16,649 nucleotides of DNA from Nannocystineae bacterium. Its GTDB lineage: Bacteria; Myxococcota_A; Polyangia; Haliangiales; Haliangiaceae. The stretch is taken from NCBI GenBank assembly GCA_007133195.1, contig SLNH01000154.1:1-16649 (forward strand), written 5' to 3'. Shown here piece after piece: positions 175 through 16,387 of this stretch. The translations under genes were made by a program, and so were the position numbers. Positions within the stretch are counted from its first letter, which is position 1. The number at the start of each line of letters is the position of its first letter. The notes under the pieces were generated by a model that worked only from the letters and a program-made list of their open reading frames with translations, did no database searches and was not told where the DNA came from.

Positions 175-2790
<2,616 letters not shown>

Positions 2791-3098
2791 CCGAGCTCCG
2801 CGAATCCCGAGGGATCCCAACCAGTGACGAGGAGAAAGCGTTCGGGGCAGTCCCCCTGGTCCCAGGGCACCGGCCGAGATCCGCCAGCGCGCCGGGCGAT
2901 GCGGCGTCGCTCGCGATCAAGGCCGCTGGGGGCGGCTATTCTTAGCCCACAATCGCCCGGAATTCAACGACGAAGCCGACTTTGCATGAGGGCGTTTCGC
3001 CTGAGTTTTTCGGTGGGTTACGGCCGGGAGGAACAGGGATCGGCAGCCTGGCGCGCCGGCGGGTTTACACCTAGCCGGCGGCCGATTACGTGTGGCTC
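2791..3098. promoter_or_regulatory. Divergent intergenic region expected to hold the promoters for gyrA (-) and the thioredoxin-domain gene (+)
   Basis: A 308-bp non-coding gap lies between divergently transcribed genes. It has locally lower GC (e.g. ttgcatgagggcgtttcgcctgagtttttcgg). No confident -35/-10 assignment could be made by eye. Confidence 0.3.
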
Positions 3099-5135
3099 AT
3101 GTCGAACCGACTCGCCGGCGAGTCCTCTCCGTATCTGCGTCAGCACAAAGACAACCCAGTGGACTGGTACCCCTGGGGCGCCGAGGCGTTTTCCAAGGCC
3201 CGGGCCGAGGACAAGCCGATGTTCGTGTCGATCGGCTATGCGGCCTGCCACTGGTGCCACGTCATGGAGCGGGAGAGCTTCGAGGACCCCGAGATCGCCG
3301 CCCGGATGAACGAGCTGTTCGTCAACGTGAAGGTCGATCGCGAGGAGCGCCCGGACGTGGATTCCATCTACATAAACGCGATCCACGTGATGGGTGAGCG
3401 CGGAGGGTGGCCGCTGTCGGCGTTCTGTGATTCAGACGGGCGCCCGTTTTACGTAGGGACGTACTTTCCGCCGGGGGACCGCTACGGCCGGCCCGGGTTC
3501 GCGCGGGTCCTCGACGCGCTGGCCCGCGCCTACCGCGAGGAGCGCGACAAGCTGGATCAGAACGCGCGCGCCGTGTTGGACGGGCTGCGGCAGATCGACG
3601 AGATCGGCCGCCGCGGCGGCGCGAGCGGCGATCCTGGGGCGCTGTCCGCGAACATGATCGAGGAGGCCGGGCGCGCGCTCGCGCAAAAGGCCGATCCGGA
3701 ATGGGGTGGGCTCGGCAAGGCTCCCAAGTTCCCCTCCCCCTCGGCCCACGATCTCCTCGCGCGGGCGGGACGGCTCGAGAGCGGCGCGCCGTGCCGCGAG
3801 GCGTTTTTGCGCCAGGCCAGAGCGATGGCCCGCGGCGGCATCTACGACCACCTGGGCGGAGGCTTTTCCCGCTACAGCGTCGATGAGCGCTGGCTCGTCC
3901 CGCACTTCGAAAAGATGCTCTACGACAACGGGCAACTCCTCGAGATCTACGGCGACGCGTTCGCGATGTCCGGCGATGGGCGCTTTGCGGAGGTGGTGGC
4001 CGAGACCGTGGGCTGGCTCGAGCGCGAAATGTCCGAGCCAGACTCGGGCGGGCTTTACGCGAGCCTTGACGCCGACTCCGAGGGCGAGGAGGGGAAGTAC
4101 TACGTGTGGACGCCGAAGGAGGTGGAGGATGCGCTCGGGCCGGCCGACGCGATCCAGTTTTCCAGCGCCTACGGGGTGACGAGCGCGGGGAACTTCGAGG
4201 GCCAAACGAGCGTGCTCTCGCGCGTGCGCGAGCCCGAATCCGACGGGGAGGCGCGGGCGCTCGCCGACATGCGGCGGCGGCTCCTCGCGGCGCGCGAAGC
4301 GCGGATTCGGCCGGCCACCGATGACAAGATCCTGGCCGGGTGGAACGGGCTCGCGCTGTCGGGGCTCGTGCGGGCGTGGGAGGCCACGGGGCACGAGCCG
4401 GCGCGCTCGCTCGCGCTCCGTGTGGCCGAATTTTTGGCTCGAGAGATGGTGCGGGGCGAGGGGGAGGGGCTTTGGCGGGTGTACAAGGAGGGGGAGCGCA
4501 AGCTGGAAGGCACGCTCGAGGACTACGCGTACGTGGCCCGGGGCCTGCTGTCCGTCGCCCAGGCCGGCGGCGAGGCGCGCTACTTCGAGCTCGGCCGGGC
4601 GCTCACCGCGCGCATGGTGGAGCGGTTTTACGCGGTGATAGACGGCGTCCCGGTGTTTTACATGACCTCCGGCGAAGACGCCGCGGACCTCGTCCACCGG
4701 CCCGAGTCGTTCGGCGACGGCGCGCTGCCTGCGGGGGCCGCGGTGGCCGTGGAGTGTCTGCTTCGGGTCGGGCGGCTTTCGGGCGACGACGAAGCGCTCG
4801 CCGTCGCCGAGCGCTACCTGGCCGCCCGAGCGCCACTGGCTGCGGAGCAGCCCGTCATGGCCTCGCGGCTGCTTTCCGCGCTCGACCTGTACCTACACGG
4901 GACGGAAGTCGTGGTGGCGCCGGGCGACGGGGAGGCTGCGCTTTGGGGCGCGGTGCGGCGGGCCTACGCGCCTACGGCGCTGCTCGCCGGGGACTTTGCC
5001 TCCGAAGAGATCTGGCGGGGCAAAAGCGCGGGCGAGCGCGGCGAGGCGCGGGCTTACGTGTGCCGAGGGACGAGCTGCTCGCCGCCTACGTCCGATCCGG
5101 CGGCCCTCGCGCGCCTCGTCGCGGCGCGCGAGTGA
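3099..5135 (+). CDS. Thioredoxin-domain-containing protein of the YyaL/SSP411 family (COG1331; N-terminal thioredoxin-like domain plus six-hairpin glycosidase-like domain)
   Basis: N-terminus [88 protein letters not shown] is the hallmark of this family and includes the CHWC redox motif. The ~680 aa length is typical. A GTG at 3090 is an alternative start; no strong SD is present for either. Confidence 0.85.
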
Positions 5136-6676: not shown

Positions 6677-7675
6677 TTAGGCGACGGCGTCGCCCTCCCG
6701 CCAGGCGGCGGCGAACCGGCGCACCACATCGGCGGTGGGCTCGATCTTGTCGATCGCGCGGACGCTCTTGCCCGCCTGAAAGTAATCGCGGTAGCCGCCG
6801 CCGCGAAGCGAGGCCCGCTTGAGCTGCCAGATCGAGCGCAGCGAGTAAAAGCTGCGGATGTAGTGCTTGAACCGCGGGTGGCGCAGGAGTGGACGGATGA
6901 GCGGGCTCGCCCGGGTGCCGAGGCTCTCGACATACGGTGTCCGAATCACAGACACCGGTACCCCCGTGATCTTGTCGGTGTGAACGATGTCGCTCTCGGT
7001 GGCGCGCAGGATGGCCCGCTTGTAGTCGTCGTGGGCGCGGCATTCCAGGGTGGCGATGAAGCGCGTGCCGAGCTGCGCGGCCTGATAGCCGCGGTCGAGC
7101 TCGTGCGCGAAGTCCTGGGGCGCCCCGACGCCGCCCGCACACACGAGCGGGAGGCCGAGATCGGACAGCTCGTCGTACAGCGCCTGCGGGGAGAGGTCGC
7201 CGGCGTGTCCGCCGGCGCGGTCGTTGACGCAGATGAGGCCGTCCACGCCCGCGTCCCGGGCCTTTTCCGCGAACTTGCGGGCGGTGACGTCGTGGTAGAC
7301 GACGCCGCCCGCGGCCCGTACGCGCTCCACGACCCAGCGCGGGTTACCGAGCGCCGTGACGAAAAAGCGCACGCCCTCCTCGAGGGCGACGTCGATCCAG
7401 CGACGCATCCGATCGAGGTAGATGCGCGACGACTGCTCGATGATCGCGTTGAAGCCGATCGGCTTGGATGTGAGCTCGCGGATGCGGCGCAGCCCATTTC
7501 GGAGCTCGTGTCCGTGGACGTACGTGAGGGCGATCGGCTGCACCACGCCCAGCGCGCCCGCCTCCGAGGCGGCGGCGACCAGCTCGGGGTTCGAGCACGG
7601 GTACATCGCCCCGCAGATGAGCGGGATCTCGGCGCCCGAGTGGTCCAAAAAAGAGTTCGTCGCGAATTCGACCAT
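6677..7675 (-). CDS. Nitronate monooxygenase / 2-nitropropane dioxygenase family FMN-dependent oxidoreductase (NMO; FabK-like TIM barrel)
   Basis: 332 aa. N-terminal region IPLICGAMYPCSNPELVAAASEAGALGVVQP and downstream GGHAGDLS...LPLVCAGGVGAPQD are the conserved FMN and substrate-binding segments of the NMO/NPD family. Confidence 0.8.
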   Translation of the reverse strand: MVEFATNSFLDHSGAEIPLICGAMYPCSNPELVAAASEAGALGVVQPIALTYVHGHELRNGLRRIRELTSKPIGFNAIIEQSSRIYLDRMRRWIDVALEEGVRFFVTALGNPRWVVERVRAAGGVVYHDVTARKFAEKARDAGVDGLICVNDRAGGHAGDLSPQALYDELSDLGLPLVCAGGVGAPQDFAHELDRGYQAAQLGTRFIATLECRAHDDYKRAILRATESDIVHTDKITGVPVSVIRTPYVESLGTRASPLIRPLLRHPRFKHYIRSFYSLRSIWQLKRASLRGGGYRDYFQAGKSVRAIDKIEPTADVVRRFAAAWREGDAVA

Positions 7676-7858
7676 AGGATGGGGAAACCTAGCAGAGGGC
7701 CGGCGCCGCGCGGAAGCGCTGGAGGCGAGGCCGGCGCCGATGACGAAGAAAGCTGCGCGGCGTCGCCTTGCTCTGGCGCGGGGAATTCAGCTAGCTTGTG
7801 GGCTGGCAGCTGGCGGGCGCGCGGGCGGCGGGCGCACGGAGCTGGAGGCAGGTTACTC
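7676..7858. promoter_or_regulatory. Divergent promoter region between the NMO gene (-) and the encapsulin operon (+); contains the palindrome AGCTAGCT (~7787-7794) and an 11-bp direct repeat GGCCGGCGCCG (7698-7708 and 7734-7744)
   Basis: 183-bp non-coding gap. The perfect 8-bp palindrome lies ~65 bp upstream of the encFtn ATG. GGAGG at 7844-7848 serves as SD for the ATG at 7859. Confidence 0.35.
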
Positions 7859-8242
7859 ATGGCAAGCTCGAGCGACTCGTTTCACGAGCCCTACGACATT
7901 CTCTCGGACGAGGTGCGCGATCGCCACCGCGCCATCGTGTCCCTCATGGAAGAGCTCGAGGCGGTCGACTGGTACGATCAGCGTATCGCCGCCGCGAGCG
8001 ATCCCGAGCTGCGGGATATCCTCGCGCACAACCGCGACGAGGAGAAGGAGCACGCGGCGATGGTGCTCGAGTGGCTGAGGCGCCACGATGAGGGCTGGGC
8101 CGCCGAGCTAAGTGAGCGGCTGTTTCGAGACGGCGCGATCGTCCAGGAAAACGACGGCGAGCACAACGTTGCCAAGAGGACCCTGCCGCCGGCCGGCGAT
8201 GGGTCGCTCGGCATCGGCAGTTTGAAGGAGACATCGCGATGA
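7859..8242 (+). CDS. encFtn: Encapsulated ferritin-like protein (EncFtn), encapsulin cargo with C-terminal targeting peptide
   Basis: 127 aa: MASSSDSFHEPYDILSDEVRDRHRAIVSLMEELEAVDWYDQRIAAASDPELRDILAHNRDEEKEHAAMVLEWLRRHDEGW... It is near-colinear with characterised EncFtn (e.g. R. rubrum: HEPLEVL..RHRAIVSVMEELEAVDWYDQR..DPEL..ILAHNRDEEKEHAAM.LEWLRR). Ferroxidase-centre residues (Glu in MEELEA, Tyr in DWYDQ, ExxH in EEKEHA) are conserved. The C-terminus ...AGDGSLGIGSLKETSR matches the Family 1 encapsulin cargo-loading peptide consensus GSLGIGSL. The long upstream track ORF (6863-7858) overlaps the NMO gene antisense and is rejected as an extension. Confidence 0.88.
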   Translation: MASSSDSFHEPYDILSDEVRDRHRAIVSLMEELEAVDWYDQRIAAASDPELRDILAHNRDEEKEHAAMVLEWLRRHDEGWAAELSERLFRDGAIVQENDGEHNVAKRTLPPAGDGSLGIGSLKETSR

Positions 8243-9048
8243 ACGAGCTTCTCAGAGAGCTCGCGCCGATTTCGTCGCGCGCGTGGGCCGAGATCGACGG
8301 CGAGGCGGCGCGGCGCCTGCGCCACGAGCTCGCCGCGCGACGGCTCGTGGATATGGACGGACCGCACGGCTGGGACAAGCCCTGCGTCAACCTAGGTCGC
8401 GCGCGAGGCCTGGGCGCCGCGCCGGTGGATGGCGTGTCCGCCTCCGAGCGGCAGGTGGTGCCGCTCGTGGAGCTCAGGACAGATTTCAAGCTCGCCCGGA
8501 CCGAGCTGGAAGCCATCGACCGCGGCGCTGACGACGCGGACCTCTCGCCGCTCATCGACGCGGCCCAGCGCATCGCGCGCGCCGAGGATACGTCTGTGTT
8601 TCACGGGTTCCGCGGCGGGGGCATCGGGGGCGTGTTCGAGCAGTCGTCGCACGACACGATGACCATCTCGGACGATTACGGGGCCTATCCCACGATGGTC
8701 GCCGTCGCGATCGGGCGCCTTCATGACGCCGGCGTGGAGGGACCCTACGCCCTGGCGCTCGGCCCGCGCTGCTGGGTCGGCCTGAACCAGGCGCCAGGGC
8801 ACGGCGGCTATCCGGTCTTCAATCAAGTGAGCCGGCTCGTCGACGGGCGCATCTTCCGCGCGCCGGCGGTAAACGGCGCGATCCTGATCTCGCTCCGCGG
8901 CGGGGATTACCAGCTCACGGTGGGGCGCGATCTGTCGATCGGCTACGCGGCGCACGACGACCGCCACGTATCGCTGTATCTGGTGGAGAGCATGACCTTC
9001 CGCGTGATCACGCCCGAGGCGGCCGTGCCGATGGCGTACGCGGCGTAG
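8239..9048 (+). CDS. enc: Family 1 encapsulin shell protein (HK97-fold; linocin M18 / CFP29-like)
   Basis: 269 aa. MNELLRELAPISSRAWAEIDGEAARRLRHELAARRLVDMDGPHGWD aligns with T. maritima encapsulin [46 protein letters not shown]. The C-terminal block DLSIGYAAHDDRHVSLYLVESMTFRVITPEA aligns with [31 protein letters not shown], and a central GPYAL motif is present. The ATG overlaps the encFtn stop (ATGA). The SD AAGGAG at 8225-8230 is embedded in the cargo's targeting-peptide codons. Confidence 0.92.
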   Translation: MNELLRELAPISSRAWAEIDGEAARRLRHELAARRLVDMDGPHGWDKPCVNLGRARGLGAAPVDGVSASERQVVPLVELRTDFKLARTELEAIDRGADDADLSPLIDAAQRIARAEDTSVFHGFRGGGIGGVFEQSSHDTMTISDDYGAYPTMVAVAIGRLHDAGVEGPYALALGPRCWVGLNQAPGHGGYPVFNQVSRLVDGRIFRAPAVNGAILISLRGGDYQLTVGRDLSIGYAAHDDRHVSLYLVESMTFRVITPEAAVPMAYAA

Positions 9049-9052
9049 CCGC

Positions 9053-9087
9053 GCGCTCGCGGGCGCCGCGATGCCGCCCGCGCGAGC
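9053..9087. terminator. GC-rich imperfect hairpin between convergent enc (+) and HD-GYP (-) genes; candidate bidirectional intrinsic terminator (no T-tract)
   Basis: GCGCTCGCGGGCG - ccgcgatgc - CGCCCGCGCGAGC: ~12-bp stem with one bulge, sitting in the 68-bp convergent gap 9049-9116. Confidence 0.3.
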
Positions 9088-9116
9088 ATCCGCTGGCGCG
9101 CCGGCACCTCGCGCCG

Positions 9117-10691
<1,575 letters not shown>

Positions 10692-10714
10692 CGCGACCTC
10701 CGGTGCGCGGGCGC

Positions 10715-11434
10715 TCAGCGCGCGCTCGTTTCGTCGCCCCCGTCCTCGCTCGCCCCGGGGTGGGTGCGCCTCACGAGGTTCTCCCAATTGTCGCGCATGT
10801 CCTCGGCCTGCCGCCGCGCCGAGCGCGCGGCCGACTCGGCCTCTTTGGCGAGGCGGGCACGGGTACGGGCCTGCTCCTCGTAGGCAGCGTAGTCGAACCC
10901 CTCGGGGCGGATTCCGTGCGCCTCCGCGACGCGGGCCTTGGCGTACTCGTAGCGCGCTTGCTGCGCGTAGGCCGACTCCGCCCTGAAGATGTAGTAGGCC
11001 TCGAGCGCTTCCTGGTGGCGCTCGACGTACTCGACCCGCGCCTCCGCCGCGCGGAGCGCCAGCTCGGCGGCGTCGAGGTTGATGGTGGCCTGCTCGATGC
11101 GGTTTTGGTCGCTCGAGCGGTCGGCGGCCTCCATCTCCGATTGCGCGGACGACGCCTGAAGCGCGGCCTGCTCACGCTCGTTCTTCGCCACCCGCAAGGT
11201 GGTCTCCACGTCCTCGAGTTGCGTCTCGGCGTTGGCCCGCTCCATGACGGCCGCGGCGTAGTCGCTTTGCGCATCCAGGACCGCCCGCTTATCGGCCGTG
11301 GACACGCGGGCGATGTGTCGGTCGTCGAACTCGTAGTCGAGCGGCTCCGGGGCGTTCGAGGAACTACCGCCACAGGCGGCGAGCGCCCAGGCGACCGCGG
11401 AGGCCGCGAGCAACGTCTTGGTTGTCGTGCGCAT
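10715..11434 (-). CDS. Coiled-coil lipoprotein, function unknown
   Basis: N-terminus MRTTTKTLLAASAVAWALAACGGSSS is a signal peptide with lipobox LAAC. The remainder is Ala/Glu/Arg/Gln-rich heptad-like sequence. GGAG lies ~11 nt upstream. It sits 20 nt downstream of the membrane-protein gene and 23 nt upstream of the HD-GYP regulator gene. Confidence 0.7.
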   Translation of the reverse strand: MRTTTKTLLAASAVAWALAACGGSSSNAPEPLDYEFDDRHIARVSTADKRAVLDAQSDYAAAVMERANAETQLEDVETTLRVAKNEREQAALQASSAQSEMEAADRSSDQNRIEQATINLDAAELALRAAEARVEYVERHQEALEAYYIFRAESAYAQQARYEYAKARVAEAHGIRPEGFDYAAYEEQARTRARLAKEAESAARSARRQAEDMRDNWENLVRRTHPGASEDGGDETSAR

Positions 11435-11454: not shown

Positions 11455-13098
11455 TTAGGTGAGATTGGGGTCGGCGTCTCCGGCTCCCGCTCCACCGCCG
11501 GGACCCGACGAGGTCGGCACCGCCAGTGAGCCGAGCTCGCCGCCCAGCTCGGAAAACCAGCCGAAAAACGTCGGTAGCATCGCTTTGCGATCGGGATCGA
11601 GATAGTCAAAGTTTCCGCCGCGGTCGGAGATCTCCCAGAACTCCTCGTTCTCGACGGCGGCGAGCTCATCCCGGATGGATCGCAGCCGCTCGGCGCGCTC
11701 GTCGGCCATGTCGTGCCAGATCCGGCGCGCCATCTCGATCTCTCCCTGCTTGAGGTAGTAGGTCGCCAGCTTGATTTGTGCCTTCCGTACCCCGCGCAAG
11801 CTCGCCTCTTGGATCTCGCCTTCGGTCACCGACGGATCGACCTCCAAAAACAGGTCTACGAGCTCCGACTCTGCGGCTGAGCGAATGGCATGGGCGGTTT
11901 CGCACATAGCGCCCAGGTCATAGGCGACGGTCTCCGTGATGAAGGCGAGCTTCTTCGCGTAACTCAAGTGTCCATAGTACTTGATGTGAGCCGCGATTTT
12001 CAGGGCGGTTTCTCCGTCGCCGAACTCGAGCGCTGCCTCGCCCATAATGCGATATTGGTTGAGAATGGTATAGGCGGTGCGGACGTCGCTGCGATTCAGA
12101 GTCGCCCGCAGGTAGGTGTTGAAGAACTTGATGGAGAGGCTGAGGGGCTCGGGCAGACGCGCCTGTAGGGCGCGCCGCGCGATGGCGCAGGTGTTGATGG
12201 CGACGATGTAGTTGATGTCGCGCATGCCGGCGAGGGCCTCGGTGTAAATGGACTGGTACTGGCGCAAAATCTTGAACTCGAGCCACGCCTCCCCGCGCTC
12301 GAGCCGCGTGAGGGAGCTATCGGCCATCGACGAAAAGTCGGGGTTGACCGCGACGGCCTCGCTGACGCGATACCAGTCGCTACCGCTCGGGGGCCTGTGC
12401 TCGAAGTAGGAGAAGGTGAGGTCCCGGAGCGCATCCACGCAGTGCGTGGCGATGATCTTGTCTTTGTTCGTGACCGCGTGGATGGCGATGTCGGTGAGCT
12501 GCTCCGTCCGGTGGAGAAACCGGCGCTGGTGCGCGAGCACGGCGCTCTGGTTGCGGGTGAGGCTCGCCGCGACGGGCTCGCGACGCGCCTCTTCCTCGAT
12601 CCGCGCGACCAGGTTCTCGGGAGCCAGAAACCGGAACACGTAGGCGAAGTAGGGCGCCATCAAGACGAAGCCGACCGTGCCGATGGCGAGCATGGCGATG
12701 AGGCTCACTCTCGGCACCCAGTCGTCGCCCACGGCGAACGCGATCCAAATCGCCTTGACGCCGCCGATGAGATAGAGCGACATCGCGAGCTGGTTCGCCC
12801 GGTCGCGGAAGAACATCTCCGTCACCGCCGGCGTGTAGCGGGTGGCGGTTAGCTGAACGATAATCGAGACGACCGTGACGATGATCCCCAAGATCGCCGC
12901 GATCGTCGTGGCGACCTGGCCGATCGATTCGGAGACGACCCCGTCGTCGAAGCTCAGATAGTTGACGAGCGGATTCGGGAACCCCGCGTCGTCCAGGTAG
13001 TGATCGATGGAGAACAGCGCCGCGAGCAGCCCCATGGCGATGGCTGACAGAACGAGCATCGGCGCGAGCCAGTCGCGGCGGCGGGTGAGGGCCGGCAT
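11455..13098 (-). CDS. Uncharacterised polytopic membrane protein (4 N-terminal TM helices plus ~370-aa cytoplasmic alpha-helical domain)
   Basis: 547 aa. TM segments: WLAPMLVLSAIAMGLLAALFSI, IGQVATTIAAILGIIVTVVSIIVQL, LAMSLYLIGGVKAIWIAFAV, VSLIAMLAIGTVGFVLMAPYFAYVF. It is first in an apparent three-gene operon. The coding assignment rests on ORF length, high third-position GC and operon context. No family is confidently recognised; it may belong to a DUF-type predicted-membrane-protein family. Confidence 0.7.
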   Translation of the reverse strand: MPALTRRRDWLAPMLVLSAIAMGLLAALFSIDHYLDDAGFPNPLVNYLSFDDGVVSESIGQVATTIAAILGIIVTVVSIIVQLTATRYTPAVTEMFFRDRANQLAMSLYLIGGVKAIWIAFAVGDDWVPRVSLIAMLAIGTVGFVLMAPYFAYVFRFLAPENLVARIEEEARREPVAASLTRNQSAVLAHQRRFLHRTEQLTDIAIHAVTNKDKIIATHCVDALRDLTFSYFEHRPPSGSDWYRVSEAVAVNPDFSSMADSSLTRLERGEAWLEFKILRQYQSIYTEALAGMRDINYIVAINTCAIARRALQARLPEPLSLSIKFFNTYLRATLNRSDVRTAYTILNQYRIMGEAALEFGDGETALKIAAHIKYYGHLSYAKKLAFITETVAYDLGAMCETAHAIRSAAESELVDLFLEVDPSVTEGEIQEASLRGVRKAQIKLATYYLKQGEIEMARRIWHDMADERAERLRSIRDELAAVENEEFWEISDRGGNFDYLDPDRKAMLPTFFGWFSELGGELGSLAVPTSSGPGGGAGAGDADPNLT

Positions 13099-14094: not shown

Positions 14095-15234
14095 ATGCCG
14101 CTCGAGCACACGCCCCTCGATCCCGCCGCCCTGGGTGAAGAGGCCAACCGCGCGCTCGCCGGGCCGATGCAGAAGCTGGCCGCGCGCGGGCTCGCGCCCG
14201 TGTCCGAGCCGACGGAGCTCGCGAGCGTGCTCTATCAGCTCGCCACGGGCCGCGACGCGGAGCTCGCCCGGGAGGCCGAGAGCTCGGCCACCGGCCTCCC
14301 GGATGGCGTGCTGCGCGGGGCGCTCGGCAGCGAGCTCGTCGATCCGCGGGTGTTGGACTTCTTTGCGCACCGGGTGGTTCACGAGCGCGAGCCACTGCTC
14401 GAGGTCATCGTGCAAAACCCGCGGGCTGCGCCACAGACCGTGGCCGACATCGCCGCACGGGGGAGCGCGCGCCTCGTCGATCTCATCGCCGACAACCAGC
14501 GGCGCCTGCTCGAACATCCGAGCATCATCGCGTCGATGTACACGAACCCGCAGGCGCGCATGTCCACGGTCGACCGCGTGGTGGAGATCGCGGTGCGCCA
14601 GGGCGTCGTGGTGAGGGGCATCCCGGCTTGGGACGAGCTGGCGGCCGCGGTGCACAAGACCGCCGGCGGCGACCCGCTCGCCGGAGCGGGCGCCGAAACG
14701 GACGCCGAAGCGAAAAACGAGGCAGACGCGCTGTTCGCGAGCGCGGCGCTGCGGGCGAGCGCCGATCCGGATGCGAGCGGCGACGGCAACGGGGACAGCG
14801 GAGGGTCGCGCTCGCGCGCGGGCGACGCCCCCCAGCTGCCGATGTCCCAGTTGACGGTGCCGCAAAAGATCCGGCTCGCGACCTTGGGCAAGGCGAGCGC
14901 CCGCGCGACGCTGATCCGCGATCCGGCGCGGCCGGTCGCCATGGCGGCCATCAAGGCCCCGAGCGTCAACGAGGCGGAGGTGCAAAAGTACGCGGCGAAC
15001 AGCTCGCTTCACGAAGACGTGGTCAAGTATATCGCTGCGCGCAGGGAATGGACGAAGCTTTACGGGGTGAAGCTCGCCCTCGTTCAGAACCCAAAGACCC
15101 CGCTGGCGTCGTCGATGCGGCTTTTGCCGCACCTGCGCGAGCGGGACATTCGCGTGGTCTCCCGTTCCAAGGGCGTGCCCTCGGCGCTGGCCGCCCAGGC
15201 TCGCAAGCTGCTGACGCAGAAAGCGCGTGGCTGA
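14095..15234 (+). CDS. Hypothetical protein with leucine-rich-repeat-variant (LRV)-like alpha-helical repeats carrying NPxTP-type motifs
   Basis: 379 aa. Repeated ~25-30-aa units include IVQNPRAAPQTVADIAARGS, MYTNPQARMSTVDRVVEIAV, LIRDPARPVAMAAIKAPSVNEAEV and LALVQNPKTPLASSMRLLPHL, reminiscent of LRV repeats (A.vinelandii LRV protein consensus ...VR.AVA.NP.TP...). A Gly/Asp/Ala-rich low-complexity linker lies in the middle. There is no signal peptide. A good SD is present. Confidence 0.7.
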   Translation: MPLEHTPLDPAALGEEANRALAGPMQKLAARGLAPVSEPTELASVLYQLATGRDAELAREAESSATGLPDGVLRGALGSELVDPRVLDFFAHRVVHEREPLLEVIVQNPRAAPQTVADIAARGSARLVDLIADNQRRLLEHPSIIASMYTNPQARMSTVDRVVEIAVRQGVVVRGIPAWDELAAAVHKTAGGDPLAGAGAETDAEAKNEADALFASAALRASADPDASGDGNGDSGGSRSRAGDAPQLPMSQLTVPQKIRLATLGKASARATLIRDPARPVAMAAIKAPSVNEAEVQKYAANSSLHEDVVKYIAARREWTKLYGVKLALVQNPKTPLASSMRLLPHLRERDIRVVSRSKGVPSALAAQARKLLTQKARG

Positions 15235-16387
15235 CCGAGGCAAAAAACAGGCTCGCTCGCGCCCTAGCGGGGGCGGGTTGGGATTCGCGACCCGCGTCGG
15301 CGCGATCATCGCGGCGCCCACCACCGGGCTCGCGGCGTGCGACCATCCCCGCCACGGGGGCAAGGGGGTGGGCGATCTCATGGTGCTGCTCGGGCTCACG
15401 GTTCTCGCGCTGCGCAGCCAGGAGGTGGTCACGGCGGTCTTGATCATCGCGTCGGGCGAAGTGGGGGGCGGGGTGAGCTCGCTCCTCGGCGCGGCGAGCG
15501 GCGCGATCTCTCGCGAGCTTGCGCTGCTGTTCGGCCTCGGCGTCGTCATCTGGCTGGCGGCCGGAAAGCGCCGCGCTTTCGGCCGCGATCTCGATCTGGC
15601 CGCGGCGGCGGTGATACCGGTGCTCGTGCTCGAAGTGGGCGCCTCACTGGTCTTGGAGGCGATCGGTGCCCGACCGTCAGAGACCGCGAGCCAGGTGCTC
15701 GGGGGCATCGGGTACGGGTGGGCGATCGGGCTCGGTGCGCTGGCGGTGCGCCAGGCGCGCAGGCGCCCAGCGCCGGATGCCGGCGAGGCAACGGGCGATA
15801 ATGCGGTCGAGACGGCGGAGCGCGCTCCGCGGCGCTGTCGCGTGGCGGGGTGGGGCGCGCTTTCGCTGTGGGCCGGGCTCATCGCGCTTCACGGAGCGGA
15901 TATCGCCGGTGACCCGAGCCAGGTGACACCGGTGGTGTCGGGCGACCCGGCGCCCGGTTTCGAGCTCCCCGTGATCGGCGAGGACGGCGAGGTCGGGCCG
16001 GGACGGGCGGCGCTGTCGGACTTCGAAGGACAGGTCGTCGTGATCGAGTTTTGGGCCACCTGGTGCGGGCCGTGTCGCGAGTCGCTGCCGGCGCTCGAGC
16101 GCGTGCGCGCCGCGTACGAGGACCAACCGGTGGCGGTCCTGGCGGTCAACACGGAGGGGCCGGCGCAAGCGGCGAGCGCGCAGGCGATGCTGAGCGACCT
16201 GGACTTCGGCGGCGTGTCGCTGTCGGATACGGGGCGCGTGGCGGATCTCTATCGGGTGACGACGATCCCTCACTTGGCGGTGGTATCGCCGGAGGGGGAC
16301 GTGGCGATGGTTCATCGCGGCTTCCGCAGCGCGAGCCGCTACGAGGACCGGATCCGCGACGTCGTAGACGATCTCCTTGTCCGCTAG
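15227..16387 (+). CDS. Membrane-anchored TlpA/ResA-like thiol-disulfide oxidoreductase (multi-TM N-terminal domain plus C-terminal thioredoxin fold with WCGPC)
   Basis: The C-terminal domain has FELPVIGEDGEVGPGRAALSDFEGQVVVIEFWATWCGPCRESLPALE...TIPHLAVVSPEGDV (thioredoxin-like CxxC, cis-Pro in TIPH). The N-terminal 230 aa contain ~5 hydrophobic helices. The GTG start at 15227 overlaps the upstream gene's stop (GTGGCTGA). The ATG at 15380 (MVLLGL..., preceded by GGGGG) is an alternative start. GC3 of the 15227-15380 stretch is ~83%, consistent with coding. Confidence 0.7.
   Translation: MADRGKKQARSRPSGGGLGFATRVGAIIAAPTTGLAACDHPRHGGKGVGDLMVLLGLTVLALRSQEVVTAVLIIASGEVGGGVSSLLGAASGAISRELALLFGLGVVIWLAAGKRRAFGRDLDLAAAAVIPVLVLEVGASLVLEAIGARPSETASQVLGGIGYGWAIGLGALAVRQARRRPAPDAGEATGDNAVETAERAPRRCRVAGWGALSLWAGLIALHGADIAGDPSQVTPVVSGDPAPGFELPVIGEDGEVGPGRAALSDFEGQVVVIEFWATWCGPCRESLPALERVRAAYEDQPVAVLAVNTEGPAQAASAQAMLSDLDFGGVSLSDTGRVADLYRVTTIPHLAVVSPEGDVAMVHRGFRSASRYEDRIRDVVDDLLVR

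Follow-up and report, generated by a model that had tools for sequence, protein, structure and literature searches.

A very probable EncFtn-type Family 1 encapsulin operon of two genes on a contig from a Haliangiales-like host

The stretch of DNA analyzed, hereafter called the window, corresponds to positions 1 to 16,649 of contig SLNH01000154.1, assigned to a Nannocystineae bacterium. At positions 7859-9048 it carries two overlapping genes on the plus strand, which very probably form a functional Family 1 encapsulin operon of two genes, chromosomal and of the EncFtn (Flp) type, with a T=1 shell. The upstream gene encodes a ferritin-like cargo protein, the downstream one the shell protein. A preliminary description, made from the letters alone, had placed a two-gene operon here and read it as an iron-oxidising or iron-sequestering nanocompartment: its coordinates proved to be exact, and its reading is supported by family scores, by conserved residues, by the targeting peptide and by the predicted fold of the shell. 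The features of the operon are the following:

7844-7848, plus strand: Shine-Dalgarno sequence GGAGG, 10 nucleotides (nt) 5' of the cargo ATG
7859-8242, plus strand: EncFtn cargo gene, 127 amino acids (aa); ATG at 7859, TGA at 8240-8242
7949-7975, plus strand: metal-site codons E31-E32-L-E34-A-V-D-W38-Y39; E31, E34 and W38 belong to the entry site, E32 and Y39 to the ferroxidase centre
8042-8053, plus strand: codons E62-K-E-H65 of the ExxH ferroxidase-centre ligands, from the alignment with EncFtn of Rhodospirillum rubrum
8198-8227, plus strand: targeting peptide DGSLGIGSLK at the cargo C-terminus, from a regular-expression scan
8225-8230, plus strand: shell Shine-Dalgarno sequence AAGGAG, within cargo codons Lys123-Glu124, 8 nt 5' of the shell ATG
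8239-9048, plus strand: Family 1 encapsulin shell gene, 269 aa; ATG at 8239, TAG at 9046-9048

The assignment of the two proteins to the encapsulin and EncFtn families was tested by profile searches, as proposed in the preliminary description, and both proteins score well above the curated cut-offs of the models concerned. The shell protein matches the Pfam family Linocin_M18 (PF04454) along the full profile, positions 1-253 of 253, with E=1.6e-81 and 273.7 bits (cut-off 24.3), and reaches 300.1 bits (cut-off 100) with the NCBIfam equivalog NF041155, "family 1 encapsulin nanocompartment shell protein". Its best solved relative is found in entry 9ry4 and its co-entries (E=6.8e-79; 52% identity over 265 residues): this is a shell of 280 aa, deposited together with the sequence of R. 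rubrum EncFtn. The next matches in the PDB are shells from Escherichia coli, Klebsiella pneumoniae, Haliangium ochraceum, mycobacteria, Brevibacterium linens and Thermotoga maritima, with E values from 1e-71 to 1e-42. Colinearity with the T. maritima encapsulin, already noticed in the preliminary description, is evident: residues 4-264 align on residues 4-262 of 3dkt (E=2e-42). Among 40 homologues, residues N2, L4, R6, L8, A9, P10, S12, W16, R34, G41 and P42 are invariant.

An AlphaFold2 model of the shell protein, for which 40 homologues were used as input, was obtained with a predicted local distance difference test (pLDDT) score of 86.5 and a predicted template modelling (pTM) score of 0.83. 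The model features an N-terminal helix (residues 13-30), a beta-hairpin resembling an E-loop (51-73), a spine helix (103-122), an alpha/beta A-domain (approximately 130-210) and a C-terminal P-domain sheet. When compared by Foldseek with solved T=1 encapsulins (H. ochraceum, E. coli, B. linens, Mycobacterium tuberculosis, K. pneumoniae), it gives template modelling (TM) scores of 0.91-0.95 and root-mean-square deviations (rmsd) of 1.5-2.0 Å. An HK97-type encapsulin fold, as anticipated from the letters, with A-domain, P-domain and an E-loop-like hairpin, is confirmed as a prediction by this model.

The same comparisons bear on the size of the particle. The T=3 and T=4 shells of Myxococcus xanthus (EncA), Quasibacillus thermotolerans and Bacillus methanolicus superimpose much less closely on the model (TM 0.71-0.80, rmsd 4.7-8.2 Å), at 20-27% identity. 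In sequence searches, E values are 1e-8 to 1e-18 for these larger shells, along with that of Dendrosporobacter quercicolus, while T=1 shells reach 1e-42 to 1e-79; the E. coli, K. pneumoniae, H. ochraceum, mycobacterial, B. linens and T. maritima shells are ordinary, small ones according to the descriptions given with the fold-search matches. Because the protein resembles solved T=1 shells much more closely, both in sequence and in structure, than it does T=3 or T=4 ones, a T=1 shell of 60 subunits, about 24 nm in diameter, is a well-supported prediction. The R. rubrum encapsulin particle measures 24 nm (PMC5012862), and in H. ochraceum the shell consists of 60 subunits, with T=1 (PMC8791618). 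A T=1 particle had also been proposed in the preliminary description, on the ground of shell length: the proposal stands, but its basis is relatedness to solved shells rather than length as such.

The cargo protein is equally well recognized. It matches the Pfam family EncFtn-like (PF22277) with E=2.1e-38 and 130.4 bits (cut-off 27), and the NCBIfam model TIGR04535, "encapsulin-associated ferritin-like protein", with 139.9 bits (cut-off 125). The EncFtn domain occupies residues 8-91 and is followed by a variable linker and by the peptide. In a search of PDB sequences, the top match is the encapsulated ferritin of R. rubrum (E=2.7e-42), with 5da5, annotated as "Rru_A0973", at E=1.7e-38. Identity to R. 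rubrum EncFtn is 60% overall, and no gap occurs across residues 1-95. At this identity to 5da5, the short cargo subunit may be expected to adopt the same two-helix fold, with no storage cavity of its own.

The glutamate, tyrosine and ExxH residues pointed out in the preliminary description as marks of the EncFtn ferroxidase are found, at R. rubrum numbering, as E32, Y39, E62 and H65. With E31, E34 and W38, also kept at the same numbers, they make up seven metal-site residues. In R. rubrum EncFtn, the ferroxidase centre has its two irons bound by Glu32, Glu62 and His65 of two chains, Tyr39 lying next to them, while a second metal site, located at the dimer interface, consists of Glu31 and Glu34; mutation of the ferroxidase centre lowers or abolishes activity (PMC5012862). 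The conservation of these positions was evaluated on the distinct open reading frames (ORFs) that directly precede related shell genes in the loci retrieved, 27 in number with the window included: all seven residues are invariant in 27 of the 27 cargos. By analogy with the R. rubrum and H. ochraceum proteins, the cargo would form a metal-dependent decamer endowed with ferroxidase activity.

The C-terminal tail of the cargo reads GDGSLGIGSLKETSR and is close to the published consensus for targeting peptides of Family 1, SDGSLGIGSLKRS (PMC8346489), in agreement with the loading peptide that had been recognized by eye. Its core, GSLGIGSL, is encoded at 8201-8224 and ends five residues short of the stop. 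A motif of the SLGIGSL[KR] type is present in nearly all of the 27 cargos. In the window, a six-frame regular-expression scan finds the peptide motif only once, at the EncFtn C-terminus; a second cargo within the window was therefore rejected.

The two genes are tightly joined. The stop of the cargo and the start of the shell share four nucleotides, ATGA, at 8239-8242, and the ribosome-binding site of the shell lies in the last codons of the cargo; because of this arrangement, translation of the two genes is probably coupled. Both the start/stop overlap and a GGAG-type shell ribosome-binding site inside the cargo are retained in relatives, and GGAG-type motifs are found at the position of the cargo Shine-Dalgarno sequence in the related loci L029, L033, L032 and L034. 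When the junctions are compared (window 8225-8242, L029 4809-4830, L033 2027-2048, together with L032, L034 and L035), the shell Shine-Dalgarno sequence of the relatives is GGAGG or AGGAG and the overlap is ATGA or GTGA. The sequence is made of the Lys-Gly/Glu codons 3' of those for GSLGIGSL: conservation of the peptide tail may in part have an RNA-level contribution.

The frame of the cargo is open further upstream, to a GTG at 6863, with an in-frame extension of 459 aa overlapping the NMO-family oxidoreductase gene on the opposite strand. Since the alignments with homologues begin at residue 1 of the 127-aa protein, 7859 is taken as the real start. Other long frames, of 278-542 aa, lie over real genes and are spurious: together with 6863-8242 (plus strand), these are 6946-7860 (minus), 8392-9228 (minus) and 9255-10883 (plus). 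Such frames are typical of DNA with approximately 68% G+C.

Both genes evolve under purifying selection. Compared with L029 and L033, whose shells are 80-82% identical to that of the window, the ratio of nonsynonymous to synonymous substitution rates (dN/dS) amounts to 0.16-0.18 (shell) and 0.17-0.31 (cargo).

Among characterized systems, the closest is the EncFtn-encapsulin pair of R. rubrum (Rru_A0973/Rru_A0974; 5da5, 9ry4/9rzu/9s05/9sqr), the founding example of the type: the locus described here is an uncharacterized case of a thoroughly characterized system. The two-gene architecture is alike, the DGSLGIGSLK peptide and the seven metal-site residues are identical, and the 52% identity between the shells extends over the full length. 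The 280-aa shell in the PDB would be Rru_A0974, as the first 96 residues of the cargo deposited with it equal those of Rru_A0973. The differences are these: the window shell (269 versus 280 aa) does not contain a five-residue insertion that R. rubrum has around position 65, where an E-loop hairpin is predicted; the window cargo has a linker shorter by about six residues; the hosts are a myxobacterium and an alphaproteobacterium, respectively. The R. rubrum complex displays ferroxidase activity and sequesters about 4150 Fe, where the same assay gave about 570 for apoferritin (PMC5012862).

The Enc:EncFtn system of H. ochraceum (7odw, 7oe2, 7oeu), a cultured member of the Haliangiales, is also of the EncFtn type and shares the lineage of the host. 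In its complex, four EncFtn decamers are arranged tetrahedrally in a T=1 60-mer (PMC8791618). Its shell is 46-47% identical to that of the window (E=2e-67; TM 0.91-0.92) and its cargo matches with E=2e-31, so that both window proteins are nearer to those of R. rubrum than to those of H. ochraceum. Because it stands further from the H. ochraceum system than from the R. rubrum one, the window system is not simply the orthologue expected from the host: the sequence distances hint at horizontal transfer, or at an old paralogous lineage, as the origin of the operon. Encapsulin operons are horizontally mobile. More distant is the encapsulin of T. maritima, a thermophile, with its Flp cargo (3dkt, 7kq5): it belongs to the same family and relies on the same targeting-peptide mechanism, at about 31% identity and TM 0.86-0.88.

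From these comparisons, a working scheme of the compartment may be drawn by analogy. The 269-aa shell protein would self-assemble, 60 subunits at a time, into the icosahedron of about 24 nm. Cargo subunits would dimerise around two Fe ions and associate into D5 decamers, each dimer interface carrying a di-iron centre formed by E32, E62 and H65, with Y39, and supplied by the entry site E31, E34 and W38. From each subunit, a flexible linker of about 20 residues, ending in DGSLGIGSLK, would dock the peptide in a lumenal pocket of the shell, made by N-terminal helix and P-domain, so that the decamers would be packaged during assembly. Fe(II) would then pass through the pores of the shell and be oxidised at the EncFtn ferroxidase centres, and the Fe(III) mineral would collect in the lumen: iron would thus be stored and Fenton chemistry limited.

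An alternative worth weighing is that this is a true EncFtn encapsulin departing from the T=1 archetype, either because its shell is of the T=3 or T=4 class or because it mainly houses unlinked cargos, as does M. xanthus EncA with EncB, EncC and EncD. The M. xanthus "iron megastore" is likewise a myxobacterial Family 1 shell with ferritin-like cargo, serving iron storage; it differs in its T=3 shell and in its several unlinked cargos. That the host of the window is a myxobacterium speaks for such an arrangement, as does the score of the cargo with the NCBIfam model EncB_fam, barely above the cut-off (90.5 bits versus 90); moreover, the 16.6 kb of visible genome leave room for cargos encoded elsewhere. 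Yet the cargo scores only 33.8 bits with the EncB model NF058678 (cut-off 210), and its matches to M. xanthus EncB and EncC (E=1e-5 to 1e-6) are far weaker than that to R. rubrum EncFtn (1e-42). Between the shell and EncA, identity is 20-23% (E about 1e-12; TM 0.71-0.77), whereas T=1 shells reach 40-52% identity and TM 0.91-0.95, and no second targeting peptide is present in the window. The EncA, EncB-model and EncB/EncC scores rule out the M. xanthus EncA/EncB subtype itself; the wider alternative appears very unlikely.

The HK97 fold, being common to encapsulins and phage capsids, calls for consideration of a remnant prophage, whose major capsid protein would be encoded by the shell gene, the more so as contamination of Family 1 datasets by phages has been noted in large-scale searches (PMC8346489). 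Nothing of the kind is apparent around the gene: no terminase, portal or protease gene is found on the 16.6-kb contig, the operon is flanked by GyrA, pantothenate kinase (PanK), signalling and redox genes, and a scan of five proteins (shell, cargo, 239-aa, 379-aa and DUF2254 proteins) gave no PHROG match at E<=0.01. The protein itself scores three times the cut-off of the Family 1 shell equivalog, its model has, in place of a phage N-arm, the N-terminal helix that is typical for encapsulins, and a dedicated cargo with a targeting peptide is encoded immediately upstream. Given its cellular flanks and the absence of PHROG matches (0 of 5), a prophage capsid is effectively refuted. A secreted bacteriocin of the linocin-M18 type, with an unrelated small protein upstream, is suggested by the Pfam name Linocin_M18 and by the label "linocin/CFP29 family protein" given to homologues by JGI. 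For this family, however, icosahedral compartments have been demonstrated structurally, including that of B. linens (7bcv; TM 0.94 to the model), and the upstream protein, which bears a shell-targeting peptide, is inherited together with the shell in 25 of 31 related loci. The bacteriocin interpretation deserves practically no credit.

No evidence contradicting a T=1 encapsulin operon of the EncFtn type was found. What weighs against it is a matter of limits. Assembly, loading and activity are argued from homologues of 46-60% identity. Furthermore, no promoter or iron-responsive operator was found, so that nothing here supports regulation by iron or by oxidative stress. In the region 7500-9400, the scan called neither a sigma-70 consensus promoter nor a T-tract terminator; in the interval between the cargo and its divergent neighbour (7676-7858), the best Fur-box-like site matches at 8 of 19 positions, while the background elsewhere in the window reaches 12 of 19. 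Phylogenetic footprinting against L029 (82% identical) revealed no conserved operator: the alignment is poor, with short blocks only near the NMO start. The non-coding segments on the two sides of the operon are:

7676-7858, unstranded: intergenic region of 183 bp between the NMO and EncFtn genes, presumed to hold the operon promoter
9053-9087, unstranded: imperfect G+C-rich hairpin between the convergent shell and HD-GYP genes, with arms of 13-15 nt, 80-85% complementary

The hairpin is a possible bidirectional terminator; it has no T-tract and was not called by the consensus terminator scan.

The GyrA protein encoded in the window is 71-74% identical to proteins named as Kofleriaceae, Haliangiales and H. 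ochraceum (74% to the latter), and the exact encapsulin proteins are found only in this contig and in two metagenome contigs, from two related samples. On these grounds, the host is an uncultured, Haliangiales-like member of the Myxococcota. Homologues of the shell are widespread: 4472 are present at E<=1e-30 in the protein collection, and Flp cargos are the second largest class of Family 1 cargos, known from 23 bacterial phyla (Andreas and Giessen, PMC8346489). It had been supposed in the preliminary description that annotation pipelines would label the two genes as hypothetical and as bacteriocin. This is not the case, as dedicated NCBIfam and Pfam models name both automatically: NCBI calls the shell homologues "family 1 encapsulin nanocompartment shell protein", and "linocin/CFP29" persists at JGI only. 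Beyond correct annotation the significance of the locus is small, as it adds one case, from an uncultured myxobacterium, to thousands of EncFtn-type Family 1 encapsulins, and it gives no special handle on the release of iron from T=1 EncFtn compartments. It is mildly useful in that a Haliangiales-like genome carries a pair of the R. rubrum rather than of the H. ochraceum type, which fits with operon mobility, and it shows that the system may be recognized from the raw sequence by reading with the naked eye.

The remaining genes located in the window are:

178-2820, minus strand: gyrA
3099-5135, plus strand: DUF255/Thioredox_DsbH (thioredoxin-domain) gene, 678 aa
6677-7675, minus strand: NMO/FabK-like oxidoreductase gene, divergent from the operon
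9117-10691 or 9117-10787, minus strand: response-regulator-GAF-HD-GYP gene, convergent with the operon; start at 10691 (524 aa) according to gene callers, at TTG 10787 (556 aa) in the longest ORF
10715-11434, minus strand: ORF of 239 aa with a lipoprotein-like N-terminus, MRTTTKTLLAASAVAWALAAC
11455-13098, minus strand: DUF2254 membrane protein gene
14095-15234, plus strand: ORF of 379 aa, between the pantothenate kinase and ResA/AhpC-like genes; also called in L027, a duplicate contig
15278-16387, plus strand: ResA/AhpC-like (AhpC/TSA) thiol-disulfide oxidoreductase gene, 368 aa

The contig further carries genes for a membrane adenylate/guanylate cyclase and for a type III PanK. Neither the 239-aa nor the 379-aa ORF has matches in Pfam, NCBIfam or PHROGs, and no tRNA or Rfam family was found in the window by ARAGORN and Rfam searches. 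Between 9117 and 13098, three tightly spaced minus-strand genes (DUF2254, 239-aa ORF, HD-GYP) converge on the encapsulin operon. Two thioredoxin-fold redox genes share the contig with an iron-storage operon: this fits an oxidative-stress theme, but is not evidence of linkage.

The NMO gene, divergent, and the HD-GYP gene, convergent, are arranged as first described. Their being atypical of EncFtn loci, also stressed in the preliminary description, carries no weight, as neighbours vary freely among relatives. The NMO-EncFtn-Enc arrangement is shared by the window, L029 and L033 only; L033 retains the HD-GYP gene as well. Where shell identity is 61-62%, the upstream place is taken by a CsgG-like gene (L030 to L032) or by a co-directional thiolase (L034, L035/L036), and none of 26 more distant genome loci, actinobacterial and other, contains an NMO match. 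The EncFtn-shell pair is the sole conserved unit, and the neighbours represent shallow synteny. Because adjacency is restricted to the closest relatives, the NMO and HD-GYP genes are uninformative on function, and a functional link to either was set aside.

A specific form of such a link would make the NMO/FabK-like flavin mononucleotide (FMN) oxidoreductase a dedicated, non-encapsulated partner of the compartment, for example a flavin-dependent ferric reductase mobilising stored iron. The idea comes from synteny alone, namely the shared 183-bp promoter region and the adjacency in the three closest relatives, with a parallel in M. xanthus EncD, which is a flavin-binding cargo; the C-terminus of the NMO protein, ...AAWREGDAVA, contains no targeting peptide. 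The chance that it is correct seems slight indeed. Were it so, iron storage might be connected with cyclic-nucleotide signalling through the cyclase and HD-GYP genes on the flanks.

In the relatives with a thiolase, this gene lies on the same strand, directly upstream of EncFtn (L034, 4342-5505; L035, 4493-5617, 13 nt away; L036, 4454-5617). The upstream thiolase, found in two separate relatives, and the FabK-like NMO are both enzymes of a lipid-metabolism type, which may be a coincidence. HD-GYP matches, finally, which recall the gene beside the window operon, occur in 5 of the 26 distant loci, mostly from Solirubrobacterales, at 4-6 kb downstream of the shell gene (L010, 11183-11662, minus strand; L012, 12396-12782, minus; L016, 11617-12159, plus; L019, 11326-11868, plus; L020, 11352-11894, plus): they probably reflect synteny within one order, or chance.

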